From a virus (taxonomy: Duplodnaviria > Heunggongvirae > Uroviricota > Caudoviricetes), in IMG/VR virus record IMGVR_UViG_3300020160_002689, positions 1 to 20,133 of that record: 20,133 nucleotides of DNA. One strand, given 5' to 3'. The notes below the pieces were generated by a model that searched no databases, was not told where the DNA came from, and saw only the letters and a program-made list of their open reading frames with translations. The stretch's first letter is position 1. Every line of letters starts with the position of its first letter. Below are positions 31 through 20,133 of the stretch, one piece after another. The position numbers and the translations under genes were made by a program.

Positions 31-62
31 AAAAAAGCCTGTTAGAAAACTAACAGGCTTTT
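31..62 (-). terminator. Intrinsic terminator downstream of leader ORF 88-186 (candidate attenuator terminator)
   Basis: Minus strand AAAAGCCTGTTAG-TTTT-CTAACAGGC-TTTTTT: perfect hairpin followed by a U-tract. Confidence 0.85.
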
Positions 63-87
63 ATATTTTTATTAATACTTTTATATA

Positions 88-186
88 TTAACTTAATGTA
101 AAGACATAGTTAGTTTGGTTCGTAAAACAATCCTGATCCTGCATCGGCTGCGGCATAACTACTATATTTTTATTTACATTTTTCAT
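88..186 (-). CDS. Putative leader peptide, 32 aa (MKNVNKNIVVMPQPMQDQDCFTNQTNYVFTLS)
   Basis: Hand-translated ATG(186) to TAA(88). Upstream promoter block and downstream terminator match the leaders at 8588-8677 and 9715-9816. Contains a GC-rich codon run CCG CAG CCG ATG CAG GAT CAG GAT. Confidence 0.7.
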   Translation of the reverse strand: MKNVNKNIVVMPQPMQDQDCFTNQTNYVFTLS

Positions 187-191
187 AATAC

Positions 192-250
192 TATATATTA
201 ACTTTTTATTGTTCCTTTTTGTTTTTTTCTATTTTTATACTACAAAAGTA
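192..250 (-). promoter_or_regulatory. Tandem promoters: Bacteroidota-type -7 box TACTTTTG (243-250) and TTAATATATA motif (192-201)
   Basis: Block closely repeated at 8683-8752 and 9822-9881; TAnnTTTG is the known Bacteroidota housekeeping -7 consensus. Confidence 0.7.
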
Positions 251-275
251 ATATAAAGTTTTCAATCAACCTAAT

Positions 276-6457: not shown

Positions 6458-6897
6458 TACTTTATCAAATAATCAGTTATTGATTTCCAATCAGGGAATT
6501 TTTCTTTACCAAAGTGTAACCACTCACCTTCAAACTCAGGTTGACCAGCTTTATTATCATCATCAATTAATAAATCACCTTTTAATAATGATTTATCACC
6601 TGCCATAATAGTTTTTTGTACAACATCATATCCTAAGTAATCCCAAACCCATTGAGCTTTCTCAGTTAATGAATTAACATTTCTAAATGATGGTCTTGTT
6701 AAAATCCAAACATCGTAATGTTCTTTAAGTAAATTAAATGCTTCTATTGCTCCTTCCATTGGTTCAAGTTTTAGGAAGAATCCCCATCTAGATTGTGGGT
6801 ATTTTTGACTTGGTGTTTCTAATAAGTCTTTCTCAAATGCTCCTCTGAAATTACAAAGGACACCATCCATATCTATGTATAATCTTTTCTTTTTCAT
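6457..6897 (-). CDS. 5'(3')-deoxyribonucleotidase, HAD superfamily (NT5C type)
   Basis: YIDMDGV motif I, ILTRP motif II, K...GDLLIDD motifs III/IV; TATCTTTG box at 6921-6928. Confidence 0.9.
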   Translation of the reverse strand: MKKKRLYIDMDGVLCNFRGAFEKDLLETPSQKYPQSRWGFFLKLEPMEGAIEAFNLLKEHYDVWILTRPSFRNVNSLTEKAQWVWDYLGYDVVQKTIMAGDKSLLKGDLLIDDDNKAGQPEFEGEWLHFGKEKFPDWKSITDYLIK

Positions 6898-6935
6898 AAT
6901 TATTATATTAAATTATTTTACAAAGATACAAAAAT

Positions 6936-6969
6936 AAAAAGACATTATCAAATTAGATAATGTCTTTTT
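6936..6969 (-). terminator. Intrinsic terminator closing tRNA array A
   Basis: AAAAAGACATTATC-TAATTT-GATAATGTCTTTTT hairpin immediately after the last tRNA. Confidence 0.85.
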
Positions 6970-6973
6970 GTTG

Positions 6974-7054
6974 AGCTAGTGACAGGATTTGAACCTGCGA
7001 CGTTGGAGTTCCTACTTACAAGGTAGGTGCAATCGACCACTATGCGACACCAGC
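6974..7054 (-). tRNA. trnT: tRNA-Thr(TGT), extended variable region
   Basis: GCTGGTG/CACTAGC acceptor; CCTAC-CTTGTAA-GTAGG anticodon arm; 12-nt variable region; GCAGG-TTCAAAT-CCTGT T arm. Confidence 0.9.
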
Positions 7055-7062
7055 ATTTTATG

Positions 7063-7136
7063 AGCTTCTCATTGGATTCGAACCAATAACATCCACATTA
7101 CTAAAGTGGTACTCTGGCCAGTTGAGCTAGAGAAGC
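7063..7136 (-). tRNA. trnT: tRNA-Thr(AGT), A34
   Basis: GCTTCTC/GAGAAGC acceptor; CCACT-TTAGTAA-TGTGG anticodon arm (U31-U39 mismatch); standard T arm. Confidence 0.85.
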
Positions 7137-7145
7137 ATATTTTAG

Positions 7146-7233
7146 AGGTATAGGTAGGATTTGAACCTACGATGATGAAATTAATCATTACAGTTTTGCA
7201 GACTGCACCTTTCGACCACTCAGGCACTATACC
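7146..7233 (-). tRNA. trnC: tRNA-Cys(GCA), long variable arm
   Basis: GGTATAG/CTATACC acceptor, U73; GCAGT-CTGCAAA-ACTGT; 19-nt variable region. Confidence 0.9.
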
Positions 7234-7242
7234 ATTTTTCAG

Positions 7243-7315
7243 AGCTTCTGGACGGGCTCGAACCGACGACATCCTCATTACAAGTGAGGTGCTCTACCAA
7301 CTGAGCTACAGAAGC
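7243..7315 (-). tRNA. trnT: tRNA-Thr(TGT)
   Basis: Canonical cloverleaf; CCTCA-CTTGTAA-TGAGG. Confidence 0.95.
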
Positions 7316-7320
7316 ATTAG

Positions 7321-7391
7321 AGGTGCTGACTGAATTTGAATCAGTGTAGGAGGTTTTGCAGACCTCTGCCTAACCACTCGGCCACAGCACC
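7321..7391 (-). tRNA. trnC: tRNA-Cys(GCA)
   Basis: Canonical cloverleaf; GAGGT-CTGCAAA-ACCTC; U73. Confidence 0.95.
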
Positions 7392-7393
7392 AT

Positions 7394-7972
7394 TTATTTT
7401 ATTTCTAAAAGATTTTCATGTATTTCTCTATGACAATTTGCACATACTAAAATACACTTATCTAATTCATCTTTAATCTTATCCCAAGCTGTACACATAT
7501 TTTTTGATAGTGTAAAATCTTTTTTAGAGGGATCCAAATGGTGAAACTCTAATGCGGATACACACTTATTATATTCACATATAACACATTTACCACCTTT
7601 ATATTCTACTGCTTTTTCTTTTGTTCTTTTTCTAAATGTTTTTGTTCTTATATAGTTAGACTTTCTTCTATCATCATCACTATCAAATGTAAACTTTTTA
7701 TTCTCACCATATTTGGTAACGGTACTTCTACCTACACCAAATTCCTTCATTGTTTCCTCTATAGAATTTAGTTTATAAAATTCTTTCAATTTTTCAATTT
7801 CATCTTTATCTAACTTTTTACCAGAATTAAGACCTATATCATTTAACATTTCACTCTTACAAAAGTAAGAAATTAAACTTCTAGAACAATTTAATTCTTT
7901 TTGTATTTCTCTATAGCTTTTACCTTGTTTTCTTAGTAAAATTATATTTTCTTTTTTAGAACCTTCAACCAT
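7394..7972 (-). mobile_element. HNH homing endonuclease with N-terminal HTH, inserted in tRNA array A
   Basis: HTH (GKSYREIQKELNCSRSLISY); CxxC...LEFHHLDP...CANCHREIH; own TTAATATATA motif at 7990-7999. Confidence 0.9.
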
Positions 7973-8019
7973 AACATATCTTTTTATGATATATATTAAT
8001 TTTTTGGTTCTACCTTTTG

Positions 8020-8092
8020 TTGGTACTGTGGGTTACGATCCCACTACCTTTCGCGTATCAGGCGAATGCTCTACCGAGTGAGCTAAGTACCA
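8020..8092 (-). tRNA. trnI: tRNA-Ile(GAT)
   Basis: TGGTACT/AGTACCA acceptor; TTCGC-CTGATAC-GCGAA; atypical T-loop ATCGTAA. Confidence 0.9.
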
Positions 8093-8100
8093 ATATATTG

Positions 8101-8174
8101 TGATTCCTGTAGGATTCGAACCTACGACCTCTTGCATGTTAAACAAGCGCTCTTACCAGCTGAGCTAAGGAATC
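8101..8174 (-). tRNA. trnV: tRNA-Val(AAC), A34
   Basis: Canonical cloverleaf; CTTGT-TTAACAT-GCAAG. Confidence 0.9.
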
Positions 8175-8179
8175 TCTTG

Positions 8180-8262
8180 TAGGTCTACTCGGACTCGAAC
8201 CGAGATTATACTTCACGTCTCTTCCATGTAAAAGAAGGATGTTGCCATTACACCATAGACCT
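8180..8262 (-). tRNA. trnV: tRNA-Val(TAC), extended variable region
   Basis: AGGTCTA/TAGACCT acceptor; CTTCT-TTTACAT-GGAAG; 16-nt variable region. Confidence 0.88.
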
Positions 8263-8268
8263 ATTTAG

Positions 8269-8349
8269 TTGGCACAGAGGGATTTGAACCCACATTTTCA
8301 ACAACCATTTACAGTTCTCCAACTTATCAGGTTGGGCTGGTATGTGCCA
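8269..8349 (-). tRNA. Arm-rearranged tRNA-like RNA with Ile(GAT) anticodon arm
   Basis: Perfect 7-bp acceptor TGGCACA/TGTGCCA and a T arm; anticodon arm CCAAC-CTGATAA-GTTGG only 7 nt after the acceptor; D-loop-like TAAATGG lies 3' of it. Confidence 0.75.
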
Positions 8350-8354
8350 ATATG

Positions 8355-8441
8355 CTACTGGGGTGGGATTCGAACCCACGGTGGAGCTGTGCTCATCAGA
8401 TTAACAGTCTGAACCGTTCGGCCAACTACGGCAACCCAGTA
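8355..8441 (-). tRNA. trnN: tRNA-Asn(GTT), long variable arm (Tyr-like scaffold)
   Basis: TACTGGG/CCCAGTA acceptor, G73; TCAGA-CTGTTAA-TCTGA; variable hairpin GAGC-ACA-GCTC. Confidence 0.88.
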
Positions 8442-8447
8442 ATTTTG

Positions 8448-8518
8448 CTCTCCCACCAGGACTCGAACCTGGAATAACTGATTAACAGTCAGACGTGATA
8501 CCATTTCACCACAGGAGA
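8448..8518 (-). tRNA. trnN: tRNA-Asn(GTT)
   Basis: Canonical cloverleaf; loop CTGTTAA; G73. Confidence 0.93.
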
Positions 8519-8527
8519 ATATTTATA

Positions 8528-8563
8528 TAAAAGAAAAGACCCAAACTTTATGTTCGGGTCTTT
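8528..8563 (-). terminator. Intrinsic terminator between leader A and tRNA array A (candidate attenuator)
   Basis: AAAGACCCGAAC-ATAAA-GTTTGGGTCTTT-TCTTTT, ending about 10 nt before the first tRNA. Confidence 0.88.
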
Positions 8564-8587
8564 AGAAATTGTTTATAATATATGAGT

Positions 8588-8677
8588 TTATACTATACAT
8601 AACTGCTTACCCGATGTTGTGTTATTCACACAATTCGTAATCGTAATCACATTAATATTTATAGTAGTTGTTTTCAT
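8588..8677 (-). CDS. Leader peptide A, 29 aa (MKTTTININVITITNCVNNTTSGKQLCIV)
   Basis: Hand-translated; 22 of 29 residues are T/I/N/V/C, the amino-acid set of the downstream array. Confidence 0.85.
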   Translation of the reverse strand: MKTTTININVITITNCVNNTTSGKQLCIV

Positions 8678-8682
8678 TGTTT

Positions 8683-8752
8683 TATATATTAAATTTTTAT
8701 TGTCCCTTTTTGGTTTTTTTGTTTTTCTTTGATTATTTATAGTACAAAAGTA
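8683..8752 (-). promoter_or_regulatory. Tandem promoters for array A: TACTTTTG (8745-8752) and TTAATATATA (8683-8692)
   Basis: Same block as 192-250 and 9822-9881. Confidence 0.7.
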
Positions 8753-8772
8753 ATATAAAGTTTTTAATCTAC

Positions 8773-8997
8773 CTAATCTTTTATTATTTTTTTTAATTTA
8801 TTTTCTCTTTCTTCTCTAAGAGTAACATCTTCAGCTATTTCTTTATTGAATATAAGATATGTTGATCCACAACTATCACAATACCACCCATCAGTGTTCC
8901 AAGGTAAATCCTCAGGTGAATATTCAATTTCATCCTTCTTACAATGTAAACAAGGTTTCACTTCATATATCTTATCTTCAACTTTAATTAGTTTCAT
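8773..8997 (-). CDS. Small zinc-ribbon protein
   Basis: CLHC and CDSC pairs; C-terminal RENKLKKII motif. Confidence 0.75.
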   Translation of the reverse strand: MKLIKVEDKIYEVKPCLHCKKDEIEYSPEDLPWNTDGWYCDSCGSTYLIFNKEIAEDVTLREERENKLKKIIKD

Positions 8998-9010
8998 ATC
9001 TTAGTTTTTG

Positions 9011-9091
9011 TACAGGTAGTCGGACTCGAACCGACACTCTTTTCAGAACACGGTCCTAAGCCGTGCGCGTATACCATTTCGCCATACCTGC
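9011..9091 (-). tRNA. trnL: tRNA-Leu(TAG)
   Basis: CACGG-CTTAGGA-CCGTG; class II variable arm; A73. Confidence 0.95.
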
Positions 9092-9102
9092 ATATTTTTT
9101 TG

Positions 9103-9185
9103 TACCGAGAGCGGGACTCGAACCCGCACATCCTTTCAGATAATAGCCTCTTAAACTACCGTGTCTACCATTCCACCACCTCGGC
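9103..9185 (-). tRNA. trnL: tRNA-Leu(AAG), A34
   Basis: Leu scaffold GCCGAGG...TCTCGGT-A; GTAGT-TTAAGAG-GCTAT; a shifted register giving TAA does not pair. Confidence 0.85.
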
Positions 9186-9195
9186 AGGTGATTAG

Positions 9196-9276
9196 TACCC
9201 CAGATAGGATTCGAACCTATATTTTCAGTTTCCAATTACCCGTAGTTGTTTAGAAGACAACTGGGACTACTGAGGC
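9196..9276 (-). tRNA. Arm-rearranged tRNA-like RNA with Arg(TCT) anticodon arm
   Basis: GCCTCAG/CTGGGGT acceptor; GTTGT-CTTCTAA-ACAAC 8 nt after the acceptor; D-loop-like TAATTGG 3' of it; ATAGG-TTCGAAT-CCTAT. Confidence 0.75.
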
Positions 9277-9284
9277 ATATTTTG

Positions 9285-9369
9285 TATCGGGAGAGGGACT
9301 CGAACCCTCACGGACATTACTGTCCACAGATTTTTAAGACCTGCGTGTCTACCATTCCACCACCCCGAC
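9285..9369 (-). tRNA. trnL: tRNA-Leu(TAA)
   Basis: CAGGT-CTTAAAA-ATCTG; class II variable arm GGAC-AGTAAT-GTCC. Confidence 0.95.
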
Positions 9370-9372
9370 AGA

Positions 9373-9459
9373 TGGTACCGAGAGCGGGACTTGAACCCGC
9401 ACGCCACAAGGGCACAAGATTTTAAGTCTTGCATGTACTACCAATTTCATCACCTCGGC
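9373..9459 (-). tRNA. trnL: tRNA-Leu(TAA), with encoded CCA
   Basis: CAAGA-CTTAAAA-TCTTG; 3' end TCTCGGT-A-CCA. Confidence 0.95.
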
Positions 9460-9466
9460 ATTATTT

Positions 9467-9570
9467 AATTAATAGTAGGACTCGAACCTACACTAAGTTT
9501 ATTTCATCCTTAGCCATATCCTCTATATCTCTGTATAAAGTTAGGTGTTTACCAGTTCCACCATATCAAT
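9467..9570 (-). ncRNA. 104-nt tRNA-like element with no canonical anticodon arm
   Basis: ATTGATA/TATTAAT acceptor, Leu-type D arm GTG-GAACTGGTAAA-CAC, T arm GTAGG-TTCGAGT-CCTAC; 52-nt non-canonical middle. Confidence 0.6.
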
Positions 9571-9572
9571 TG

Positions 9573-9644
9573 TGACCCCACAGGGATTCGAACCCCGATT
9601 GAAAGCTTAGAAGGCTTTAGTCCTATCCATTGAACGACAGGGCC
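9573..9644 (-). tRNA. trnR: tRNA-Arg(TCT)
   Basis: Canonical cloverleaf; AAAGC-CTTCTAA-GCTTT. Confidence 0.95.
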
Positions 9645-9653
9645 AATTTAAAA

Positions 9654-9687
9654 CAAAAAACCCAAAACTTTTTGAGTCTTGGGTTTT
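9654..9687 (-). terminator. Intrinsic terminator between leader B and tRNA array B (candidate attenuator)
   Basis: AAAACCCAAGACT-CAAAA-AGTTTTGGG-TTTTTTG, ending about 10 nt before the first tRNA. Confidence 0.88.
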
Positions 9688-9714
9688 GTTATTTGTTATA
9701 ATACTTTTAATTGA

Positions 9715-9816
9715 TTACCAACTAAAATCATTTCCAAATTGAGCAAAACCCATCCCTTGTCTTAAAGATAAGACAGTCAGTGTTAAGTTTCTTCTATTTA
9801 GAATTGTTGTGTTCAT
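9715..9816 (-). CDS. Leader peptide B, 33 aa (MNTTILNRRNLTLTVLSLRQGMGFAQFGNDFSW)
   Basis: Hand-translated; 5 Leu and 3 Arg (all AGA) codons within codons 6-19, matching the Arg(TCT)/Leu array. Confidence 0.82.
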   Translation of the reverse strand: MNTTILNRRNLTLTVLSLRQGMGFAQFGNDFSW

Positions 9817-9821
9817 AATTG

Positions 9822-9881
9822 TATATATTAAAGTTTTATTCTCTCTTTTTGTTTATTTGTTATTTTTATAGTACAAAAGTA
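9822..9881 (-). promoter_or_regulatory. Tandem promoters for array B: TACTTTTG (9874-9881) and TTAATATATA (9822-9831)
   Basis: Same block as 192-250 and 8683-8752. Confidence 0.7.
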
Positions 9882-9906
9882 TAAAAAGTTTTCTATTGTA
9901 CCTAAT

Positions 9907-10110
9907 TTATTTTAATTTATTTTTAATTTTTTCTGTAATCTTCTCTAAACTTGATTTAGATTTAGGTTTTTGTTTTGGAAATCTACCATGGTTTCCCATA
10001 CTATCATAGTCTGTACATTGATATGCTGCAGGTGATGGTAATCCACTATAGTAACAGAATTCTTCTTCACTAAGTATTTCTTCTTGTTCTTGGTTTTCTT
10101 TTGGATTCAT
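9907..10110 (-). CDS. Hypothetical protein
   Basis: 67-aa ORF coupled to the upstream gene; FCYYSGLPSP motif. Confidence 0.7.
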   Translation of the reverse strand: MNPKENQEQEEILSEEEFCYYSGLPSPAAYQCTDYDSMGNHGRFPKQKPKSKSSLEKITEKIKNKLK

Positions 10111-10346
10111 TATTTTAATATTTCTTTTAATTTCTCTTCTCTTTTTTCTTCTAAAGACATGTTTTCTATCTTTTCATTGGTATAGTTAGACCATCCAACT
10201 AAACTAAAGAATAATATAAAGTATATCCATACAAATATTTTATTATTTGCAATACTATTAGGTAAAAAGAATGGTATTACAAACATCATTAATATTGCTG
10301 TTATACCTGTAACTAATGTTAGTTTACTTTTAGTTTTAGAAGTCAT
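10110..10346 (-). CDS. Small membrane protein (two predicted TM helices)
   Basis: Two hydrophobic stretches; C-terminal REEKLKEILK. Confidence 0.75.
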   Translation of the reverse strand: MTSKTKSKLTLVTGITAILMMFVIPFFLPNSIANNKIFVWIYFILFFSLVGWSNYTNEKIENMSLEEKREEKLKEILK

Positions 10347-10729
10347 TACTCAGCTTTTAATTTAGCAAGTTTTTCTTCCATTTCTTTGATTTGTCTTTGT
10401 TTCAACAATTCTTTTTTTGCATTGGCTGCTTCTTCTACTGCCTGAACTTCTTCATCAGTAGATTTTCTGTAATTGAAGCCATAAACATCAAGTTCTTGGT
10501 GATCACAATGCCAGTCACAAGCTACATAGTTTGCACCTTTATCTTTTAGTTCTTGAAGAATAGTAATTAATTCATCAATTTTTACTAAACCTGCATCAGA
10601 TTGGTTAACATCACCAGTTTCTCTATAATCATCATCAATTTCATAATCAAATCCATTATCTTCTTGTGGATTAGAAGTTAGATATTTTTTCCCAATAAAT
10701 TTATTTGTAAAATAGCTTATTACTTTCAT
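10346..10729 (-). CDS. Hypothetical acidic protein with C-terminal coiled coil
   Basis: 127-aa ORF; TATCTTTG box at 10750-10757. Confidence 0.8.
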   Translation of the reverse strand: MKVISYFTNKFIGKKYLTSNPQEDNGFDYEIDDDYRETGDVNQSDAGLVKIDELITILQELKDKGANYVACDWHCDHQELDVYGFNYRKSTDEEVQAVEEAANAKKELLKQRQIKEMEEKLAKLKAE

Positions 10730-19133: not shown

Positions 19134-20133
19134 TTATTTTACACTATTAATTAGTTCAATTTCTTCTTTAGTTAATTCAAAATATTCAAATAGTGTTTCA
19201 TCTGTCCAAGTTATTGATAAATCTATTTTTGGGAAAATTTTTATATTTTTTTCATCAGAAAATCCATTCAGTCTAAATTGTGTTAGCCAGTATTTAACTA
19301 TTTTACTTTCTATAATTGATTTAAAATTATTAAATTCTAGTTCATTTTCAATTTCAATATAACATATATTATCAGTTAATAAATAGTTTCCTGTACTATC
19401 ATAAGATGGACATAAATATCCACTTCTATTCATTACTATTTTCTTTTTACTATCTGAAAAGTCTCTATCTATGAAGTATAATTTACCTGGAAATGGGTTA
19501 GATTTATTAATACCATCAATAACAGGAAATATATGAGTTTCTGTTATTAGTTTGGTTACTAAACCATCATCAACTTGTTTTTTTCTTATTCTTAGTTCTC
19601 TATTTTTATTAGCTAATGGAATTGACATTACTTTAATATCAAAAAAGTCTTTATTTTTTCTTAACTTTTCAATTATTGTAATATCATTCTTAGATAATCT
19701 ATTTGGTATACTTTTTCCTTTTTCTAAAAGAATATGTGACTCTTCCTCTTTCTTATCAAATAGAAATTTAATTTTAGTTTTTCTTGTGTATAATTCTTTT
19801 TGTATAAGAAAATATGCAAATGTTGATCCAACCCCTTTAAAGTAAACACTTGGTGTGTCTATTGCTAAATAATGAACTTGATAGAAGTTATCAAAGTAGG
19901 TTCTATTTTTATCACACTGTAGTATATAATCTATTATATTTTTTGGAGTTACAAATAGTAGGAATTTGTTGTCATTAAGTATTTTAATTGATTTTCTACT
20001 AAAGTCTAGGTATAATTTATTATCACCTGTAGCATCACTTGTTTGATATGGTGGATTTCCAATAACAATATCAAATTTATCAACATTCCAAATATTTTTC
20101 ATATGGTAGTCAAATCCTTCTTCTAAGAAGGAA
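19134..20133 (-). CDS. N6-adenine DNA methyltransferase (Eco57I/TaqI-like), 5'-truncated by the window edge
   Basis: FDIVIGNPPY motif IV; frame stays open upstream of ATG 20102 (SFLEEGFDYH) to the window end; SAM-binding motif I presumably outside. Confidence 0.85.
   Translation of the reverse strand, partial: SFLEEGFDYHMKNIWNVDKFDIVIGNPPYQTSDATGDNKLYLDFSRKSIKILNDNKFLLFVTPKNIIDYILQCDKNRTYFDNFYQVHYLAIDTPSVYFKGVGSTFAYFLIQKELYTRKTKIKFLFDKKEEESHILLEKGKSIPNRLSKNDITIIEKLRKNKDFFDIKVMSIPLANKNRELRIRKKQVDDGLVTKLITETHIFPVIDGINKSNPFPGKLYFIDRDFSDSKKKIVMNRSGYLCPSYDSTGNYLLTDNICYIEIENELEFNNFKSIIESKIVKYWLTQFRLNGFSDEKNIKIFPKIDLSITWTDETLFEYFELTKEEIELINSVK

Follow-up and report, generated by a model that had tools for sequence, protein, structure and literature searches.

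Why do phages carry many transfer RNA (tRNA) genes, and how are these genes controlled? Both are open questions in the field, and they are raised in concrete form by a short region, here called cassette B, at 9654-9881 of the viral DNA under study. The window, i.e. the whole stretch that was analysed, runs from base 1 to base 20,133 of an 84,133-bp contig (G000) with 28% G+C; the contig contains at least 37 tRNA genes, which are distributed over several arrays. When both strands were checked, no open reading frame (ORF) of 50 codons or more was found to overlap 9654-9881. All parts of cassette B lie on the minus strand, in the order promoter-like block, 33-codon ORF, terminator, and then tRNA-Arg(TCT) together with Leu tRNAs. 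From the sequence comparisons described below we consider it likely that the Arg(TCT)/Leu tRNA array is gated by cassette B, acting as a transcription attenuator of the ribosome-mediated (leader-peptide) type. The phage would then probably make its Leu and Arg tRNAs only when ribosomes slow at the corresponding codons. The elements of the cassette are the following.

9863-9905, minus strand: promoter-like block, a recurring pattern, with TTAGGTA at 9905-9899, AAACTT at 9891-9886, TTTGTA at 9877-9872 and TATAAAAA at 9870-9863
9822-9831, minus strand: TTAATATATA motif, read from the sequence, 5 nt before the leader ATG and at the end of an A-rich 5' region
9715-9816, minus strand: leader ORF B, 33 codons plus TAA (stop at 9717-9715), translated as MNTTILNRRNLTLTVLSLRQGMGFAQFGNDFSW
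9784-9791, minus strand: segment 1, predicted anti-antiterminator GAAACUUA, codons 9-11, from minimum-free-energy folds
9758-9775, minus strand: conserved 7-bp hairpin UGUCUUA-UCUU-UAAGACA, codons 14-20, from the RNAalifold consensus
9744-9752, minus strand: segment 2, antiterminator strand TGGGTTTTG (= UGGGUUUUG), codons 22-25, with nine perfect pairs to 9688-9680
9705-9727, minus strand: hairpin with the leader stop codon in its loop, predicted in the fold of G000, its role being putative
9647-9687, minus strand: intrinsic terminator with 5' arm 9687-9675, loop 9674-9670, 3' arm 9669-9657 and T-tract 9656-9647, i.e. 13 pairs and then TTGTTTT

The leader is rich in two amino acids. Codons 6 (CTA), 8 and 9 (AGA), 11 (TTA), 13 (CTG), 16 and 18 (TTA) as well as 19 (AGA) specify Leu or Arg, which makes 8 of the 19 residues at positions 2-20, compared to a background of 11.4% in the long ORFs of the contig (binomial P = 7e-4). 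Besides CTA, the leader contains the very rare CTG, which represents 15 of 1628 Leu codons in the contig. All eight codons can be read by anticodons of array B under strict wobble rules. The array reads as follows.

9010-9644, minus strand: tRNA array B, the genes downstream of the terminator (ARAGORN and Rfam tRNA model)
9644-9572, minus strand: tRNA-Arg(TCT), first gene of the array (ARAGORN)
9570-9467, minus strand: odd 104-nt tRNA-like gene (Rfam tRNA model)
9459-9373, minus strand: tRNA-Leu(TAA), copy 1
9369-9284, minus strand: tRNA-Leu(TAA), copy 2
9276-9196, minus strand: odd 81-nt Arg(TCT)-like gene
9185-9102, minus strand: tRNA-Leu(AAG)
9091-9010, minus strand: tRNA-Leu(TAG)

The two non-canonical genes (9467-9570 and 9196-9276) score 35.9 and 39.5 bits with the Rfam tRNA model and are missed by ARAGORN at default settings; the 81-nt gene has the anticodon loop CTTCTAA (TCT). 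Identities proposed for the two genes by the intron and low-score options of ARAGORN proved unreliable and were set aside.

The leader is presumably translated, as is suggested by its start context and by the indels among its relatives. The TTAATATATA motif appears to be the usual gene-start context of these phages and is possibly also a second, late-type promoter. In a related 634-kb record, the motif followed by an ATG 3-12 nt later gives 68 matches versus 2 for a reversed-pattern control, and many of these matches precede ordinary gene starts. The ORF is open in all 13 variants of family B that were aligned with MAFFT (alignment A1), and the two internal indels are 3 nt each, so that the reading frame is preserved. 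Upstream, the block at 9905-9863 is a putative promoter. Its pattern, TT[AT]GGT[AT]-N5-9-AAACTT-N8-12-TTTGTA, has exactly four matches in the 84-kb contig, each at a leader/terminator/tRNA cassette, and the block is also found at homologous cassettes on other contigs.

The terminator stands immediately in front of the array. Between its T-tract and the first tRNA (start 9644) there are only 2-3 nt, which leaves no room for a separate promoter after the terminator. Perfect stems of 11-13 bp are present in 13/13 family B variants when the terminators are called sequence by sequence. This procedure was chosen because MAFFT displaced the 3' arm; the pair counts taken from alignment A1 (76% paired cells) were dropped, as the arm had been put one column off in most rows. 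Inside the leader, the antiterminator strand is a 9-nt copy of the terminator 3' arm and thus a perfect complement of CAAAACCCA (9688-9680) in the 5' arm. When the codons of the leader are shuffled, a complementary run of at least 9 nt to its own 5' arm arises in 0.9% of cases. Taken alone, the terminator helix has a free energy of -15.3 kcal/mol and the antiterminator helix one of -8.8 kcal/mol. A preliminary description of the locus, made from the sequence alone, had proposed much of this anatomy, and it holds up on inspection: the leader at 9715-9816 with eight Leu/Arg codons at positions 6-19 is borne out by the minus-strand translation, the codons are indeed readable by the downstream tRNAs (8/8), the complementarity of 9744-9752 with 9680-9688 amounts to nine perfect pairs, and the 7-bp hairpin at 9758-9775 is present in the folds as well as in the RNAalifold consensus.

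As a whole, the 172-nt leader RNA folds at -44 kcal/mol compared to -25.9 kcal/mol for shuffled sequences (z = -4.9). Such strong structure could also be expected of an RNA-only sensor, in which the leader RNA itself would recognise tRNA, much as a T-box does, and the ORF would be incidental; the fact that the regulated genes and the sensed molecules would both be tRNAs fits T-box logic as well. No T-box or other Rfam cis-regulatory family, amino-acid leader families included, matches 6500-10200 at E up to 1, and the only cis-regulatory rows in this cmscan are plastid UTR (untranslated region) models on tRNA genes, far below gathering scores. Moreover, an incidental ORF would not be expected to stay open in 13 variants with internal indels of 3 nt only, nor to have the phage's normal gene-start context, and a single specifier codon cannot account for the several amino acids represented in each leader. 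We therefore regard direct tRNA binding as extremely unlikely.

Two mutually exclusive helices, in which the terminator 5' arm pairs either with the antiterminator strand or with the 3' arm, are conserved in family B. The antiterminator helix is retained with 9-10 bp in 11 of the 13 variants and with 8 bp in the other two; its loss in homologues, which the preliminary description had envisaged as a counter-indication, was thus not observed. Overall, 98.3% of the cells in this helix are paired, and eight pairs are invariant, two third-codon positions among them. Some covariation is seen as well: pair 65/144 is C-G in seven variants, U-A in four and C/A in two, and the change is mirrored in the terminator 3' arm, with UUUUGGG accompanied by CCCA and UUUCGGG by CCCG. 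A coordinated change in three strands (antiterminator strand, 5' arm and 3' arm) is what two mutually exclusive helices would predict. The hairpin at 9775-9758 is likewise conserved (97.8% of cells paired), with a variable loop and changes from U-A to U-G only. RNAalifold, run without guidance, returns a consensus made up of this hairpin and the antiterminator.

Cassette B is not alone in the contig. Five cassettes can be distinguished, of which A, B and D are inside the window and C and E outside.

8528-8776, minus strand: cassette A, with promoter block, leader at 8677-8588 (MKTTTININVITITNCVNNTTSGKQLCIV; starts MKTTTININVITITNCVNNTT) and terminator at 8563-8535, before Asn, Ile, Val, Cys and Thr tRNAs
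9654-9881, minus strand: cassette B, with Arg(TCT) and Leu tRNAs downstream
G000 49500-49650: cassette C, with a Phe/Lys/His/Trp leader (MRTNFKHTSFSKSFKWFSHKF..), before Lys, Trp, Phe and His tRNAs
31-274, minus strand: cassette D, with promoter block, leader at 186-88 (MKNVNKNIVVMPQPMQDQDCFTNQTNYVFTLS; starts MKNVNKNIVVMPQPMQDQD) and terminator at about 61-34, its array lying beyond the contig end
G000 51140-51421: cassette E, with a Ser-rich leader (MKTIISTSSSSSSRSS..) containing one rare CGT, before Arg(ACG)

Cassette E is located inside an array and has only the TTAATATATA element, without the upstream promoter block. In leader A, 18 of the 19 residues at positions 2-20 are cognate to array A (P = 5e-9). 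When the background-divided composition of the five leaders is set against the amino-acid sets of the arrays in a 5 x 5 comparison, the maximum of every row falls on the diagonal, with 3.1- to 5.2-fold enrichment, and out of 120 permutations the true assignment alone ranks first. The match extends to the choice of Arg codons, which tracks the anticodon: AGA is used before Arg(TCT), and CGT, which makes up 29 of 676 Arg codons in the contig, before Arg(ACG), where relatives use CGC and CGA. Even for cassette D, whose terminator is followed by the contig end after 30 nt, the expectation derived from its Pro/Gln/Asp-rich leader came true, since five other contigs have leaders of type D upstream of tRNAs for Gln, Pro, Asp and, in some cases, Met. 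It is exactly these tRNAs that the present contig lacks.

The preliminary description had anticipated a modular system of matched leaders, and had suggested a permutation test of leader composition against array content. The test came out in favour of the true pairing (best of 120), and modularity is apparent from the five cassettes in the contig as well as from the same families in the 634-kb record and in dozens of metagenomic megaphage contigs. A further claim, that the amino-acid sets are disjoint, is correct for the arrays A and B and incorrect for the leaders, as leader B additionally has codons for Thr (4), Asn (4), Ile (1) and Val (1), i.e. amino acids of the downstream array A.

Pattern scans of IMG/VR and metagenome contigs yielded 52 distinct cassettes with a promoter block, plus nine of type E. 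All of them belong to the same families and have matching arrays; the contigs are up to 476 kb in size and come largely from freshwater and wastewater samples. The 634-kb record mentioned above (LR745206, an uncultured phage) shows the same design with diverged sequences, in the following combinations.

LR745206: His/Lys/Phe/Trp leader, before His, Phe, Trp and Lys tRNAs
LR745206: Ser/Arg leader, before Arg(ACG) and Ser(TGA)
LR745206: fused leader (MTTMNLNMTMNLTLNVVNITLCNIR..), before a fused array of Asn, Arg, Leu, Val, Ile, Thr and Met
LR745206: Pro/Gln/Asp leader, before Pro, Asp and Gln tRNAs

In the fused leader of this record 18 of 19 codons are readable by its array. A single fused leader (Met/Asn/Leu/Thr/Val/Ile/Cys/Arg) followed by one long array takes the place of A and B in LR745206 (L004 15610-18340) and in L039, L047, L095, L115 and L146. 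These fused leaders have three internal Met codons, and their complete arrays include a Met(CAT) tRNA. Judging from this comparison, splitting or merging seems to affect leaders and arrays jointly.

In every family, the leader holds a complement of its own terminator 5' arm at about codons 20-25. The complementary runs have a mean of 7.5 nt for cognate pairs versus 5.2 nt across families, and among 720 permutations of the families the true pairing comes out on top. The antiterminator strands differ from family to family.

Family B: (U/C)GGGUUUUG
Fused AB: (U)CUGAGGG(UU)
Family A: UUCGGGU
Family C: (A)AGUUCGG
Family D: (A)GACUAAC(U)
Family E: GAUUCGA, AAUCCGA or GGUUCGA

In L077 the whole helix has been replaced, and GAACTTGG pairs with CCAAGTTC (also written GAACUUGG / CCAAGUUC). 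Among the E leaders, GATTCGA, AATCCGA and GGTTCGA match TCGAATC, TCGGATT and TCGAACC, respectively. As judged from L077 and the E variants, where the terminator was replaced, the leader has followed.

One might still argue that the leader is no more than a gene for a small protein, complete with terminator, that the tRNAs are expressed otherwise, and that the match in composition is coincidental. Phage genomes often contain small ORFs and terminators, and leader B by itself is only moderately enriched (P = 7e-4). Such a gene would leave unexplained that there are five matched cassettes in the contig and at least 52 elsewhere with the same geometry, that each family has a built-in, family-specific complement of its own terminator arm, and that the T-tract is only 2-3 nt away from the tRNA. 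A coincidence of this kind is hardly credible.

A further observation on the leaders concerns their ends. The leaders of L016, L031, L046 and L082 end in TAG and not in TAA. Some megaphages reassign TAG; if the present phages do so late in infection, TAG-ending leaders would be read further.

From the attenuator model the following course of events would be expected for cassette B. The transcript would begin at the promoter block of the cassette itself, and its 33-codon leader would be translated. As long as Leu (CTA, TTA, CTG) and Arg (AGA) codons are decoded fast, the ribosome would pass the antiterminator strand and reach the stop codon, the 13-bp terminator would form, and transcription would end 2-3 nt before tRNA-Arg. 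If charged cognate tRNAs are scarce, decoding would be slow and the ribosome would stall at codons 6-18, leaving UGGGUUUUG (codons 22-25) free to pair with the emerging terminator 5' arm. With the terminator blocked, the polymerase would read into the tRNA genes and the shortage would be relieved. In a four-segment logic, stalling would correspond to 2:3 pairing and read-through, and full or no translation to 1:2 plus 3:4 pairing and termination. The signal sensed would be the decoding rate of the Leu (CTA, TTA, CTG) and Arg (AGA) codons, which would reflect the supply of charged cognate tRNAs from host and phage together. The outcome would be negative feedback on tRNA supply, exerted by one of at least five modules that are each written in the codons of their own array.

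Folding calculations are consistent with this direction of the switch. In nascent-RNA folds the antiterminator forms once the 5' arm is out (RNA 1-140 and longer), and the full RNA prefers the terminator. When a ribosome was simulated as a 28-nt footprint constraint with its A site at codon 8, 9, 11, 13, 16 or 18, the antiterminator strand was free and paired with the 5' arm; from codon 19 onwards it was covered by the ribosome. With the ribosome at the stop codon, the terminator forms and the antiterminator strand pairs back to GAAACUUA, enclosing the conserved hairpin. Segment 1:2 pairing of this type is found in the minimum-free-energy folds of 13/13 B variants and of most other families, and AACTTAAC within segment 1 is invariant across the 13 B variants.

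The direction might also be the opposite one, with stalling leading to termination and fast translation to read-through, i.e. a positive feedback. The favoured direction is deduced from folds, and the predicted anti-antiterminator is statistically weak, which leaves some scope for reversed logic. Nevertheless, in the footprint folds a ribosome at codons 8-18 frees the antiterminator strand, which then pairs with the 5' arm, and a ribosome beyond that strand gives the terminator. Furthermore, all families resemble classical attenuators in having their regulatory codons ahead of the antiterminator strand. A reversed switch is thus very unlikely.

Several points weigh against attenuation as outlined here. 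First, segment 1:2 pairing does not exceed chance: in 57 of 300 codon-shuffled controls (19%) the antiterminator strand pairs upstream equally well, shuffled upstream halves match the real upstream pairing in 5-46% of trials for most other representatives, and in cassette C there is no far-upstream pairing of the antiterminator strand at all. As the shuffled controls pair equally well, segment 1:2 is kept here as a prediction only. Second, a ribosome at the stop codon (footprint at about RNA 85-112) leaves both the antiterminator strand and the 5' arm uncovered, hence termination after full translation would have to depend on segment 1:2 re-pairing or on steric blocking. Such a ribosome would sit inside the 55-nt antiterminator loop. 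In the folds it melts the hairpin that holds the stop codon, and a hairpin recurs at the equivalent position in most B variants despite their differing sequences. Third, covariation in family B is thin, since 8 of 9 pairs never vary and the lone covarying pair may reflect one or two events. Fourth, leader B is less pure than leader A because of its Thr, Asn, Ile and Val codons. Fifth, a Met/Tyr/Glu array at about 33650-33810 of the contig (locus L001; 33.7 kb) is without leader ORF or terminator and starts directly after a promoter-like AAAACTTT..TTAATATATA..ACTATAAAA element. As far as the sequence tells, not every tRNA array of the contig is gated.

Finally, the available expression data leave room for doubt. 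Among 24 public runs, six RNA libraries contained part of the stretch, and four of them were compared with the window; all are stored as contigs. A 347-nt RNA-library contig from a relative with about 92% identity spans 9454-9799, that is, leader, terminator and tRNA-Arg, and another covers 9811-9934. Contigs of this kind, derived from a relative, cannot show 3' ends, strand or transcript levels, and they may be DNA carry-over.

The difficulty with the ribosome at the stop codon bears on yet another model, namely timed or factor-dependent antitermination. Here, a phage protein or a modified polymerase would override the terminator, and the small ORF would only load ribosomes or protect the RNA. 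Ribosome-at-stop geometry alone does not account for termination, there are two promoter-like elements before the leader, and early and late transcription programmes are common in large phages. What this model leaves unexplained is why each leader favours the amino acids of the array behind it, why it contains the complement of its own terminator arm, and why the choice of Arg codons tracks the downstream Arg anticodon. We consider antitermination by a factor unlikely. None of the rival explanations accounts for the triple match in leader composition, Arg codon choice and own-terminator complementarity.

The surroundings of cassette B hold additional features. Between array B and cassette A, a 74-aa Cys-rich ORF with a weak DUF7836 match is encoded at 8773-8997 on the minus strand, and no terminator precedes it. 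Since there is no terminator between array B and cassette A, read-through from B would enter leader A and terminator A, which would place the two attenuators in series. For the neighbouring small ORFs at 9907-10110, 10110-10346 and 10346-10729, a Pfam search gave no match. ORFs resembling mobile endonucleases are located between tRNA genes at 7394-7972 of the window, at 50620-51026 and 30790-31410 of the contig, and in L031 and L056. The assignments are to HTH/NUMOD1 by Pfam and, by visual inspection, to Cys-rich HNH-like and GIY-YIG-like sequences. The ORF of this kind in L031 and L056 lies between the terminator and the first tRNA, so that a read-through transcript would carry it.

Taken together, the balance of probability tilts slightly towards a modular tRNA homeostat in these megaphages, in which each tRNA sub-array would be placed behind its own codon-matched attenuator, decoding would be measured codon set by codon set, and only limiting tRNAs would be replenished. 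If this is true, the phage gauges the efficiency with which its AT-rich genes are decoded in the infected cell, and a shortage of tRNAs could stem from mismatched codon usage, from host shut-off or from anticodon nucleases of the host. A codon-matched attenuator for each array would mean that the phage itself measures and corrects tRNA supply, set by set, and the role of phage tRNAs, be it codon-usage compensation or the replacement of depleted or cleaved host tRNAs, would become directly testable. A textbook mechanism would be extended to stable RNA genes whose product closes the loop on its own sensor. Furthermore, the cassettes would offer small parts of natural origin from which the speed of decoding could be read for chosen codons.

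To our knowledge, all described leader-peptide attenuators control amino-acid biosynthesis enzymes or synthetases. A full-text literature search, with most subscription journals outside its coverage, found no description of leader-peptide attenuation of tRNA genes. If the homeostat is real, leader-peptide attenuation would for the first time be known to act on tRNA genes and to sense the very product that it controls.

Among known systems, the enterobacterial multivalent attenuators are instructive. The ilvGMEDA leader is a Leu/Val/Ile-rich peptide of 32 aa, and the thr leader is a Thr/Ile-rich peptide of 21 aa. Cassette B shares with them a short leader enriched in several amino acids followed by an intrinsic terminator, an antiterminator strand that competes for the 5' arm, and the expectation that stalling at regulatory codons gives read-through. 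It differs in that it resides in a phage, targets tRNA genes and has a sensor that would read the supply of its own product; in addition, its antiterminator strand is inside the ORF, about 10 codons before the stop, and there is no relation in sequence or Rfam model. In E. coli pheM-pheST, a Phe-rich leader controls phenylalanyl-tRNA synthetase. In both systems leader-peptide attenuation would act on a component of the decoding machinery and not on a biosynthetic pathway, yet pheM-pheST concerns a synthetase gene and one amino acid, whereas the phage cassettes would gate tRNA genes for sets of 2-5 amino acids. The leader of the leu operon has four Leu codons, the rare CUA among them. Leader-peptide attenuators have been modelled as a class that includes the leu leader and trpL/hisL (PMC1183508). 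As in these leaders, particular and partly rare codons (CTA and CTG in leader B) would serve as sensors; in contrast to them, the regulatory codons of leader B are scattered over positions 6-19 without a tight run, and Arg AGA is included.

T-box elements are also terminator/antiterminator switches that respond to tRNA status. Unlike cassette B, however, a T-box binds uncharged tRNA directly, needs no translation, and has a conserved Stem I and T-box sequence; its targets are synthetase and amino-acid genes, whereas those of cassette B are tRNA genes. With the leader-peptide class, cassette B has in common a leader ORF, cognate codons, a terminator that no further promoter follows, and an antiterminator that excludes the terminator. 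Downstream lie seven tRNA or tRNA-like genes, and no genes for enzymes or synthetases. Because these four features of the class are present and the targets are tRNA genes, it is reasonable to propose that cassette B would work like the leader-peptide attenuators, with a new class of targets.

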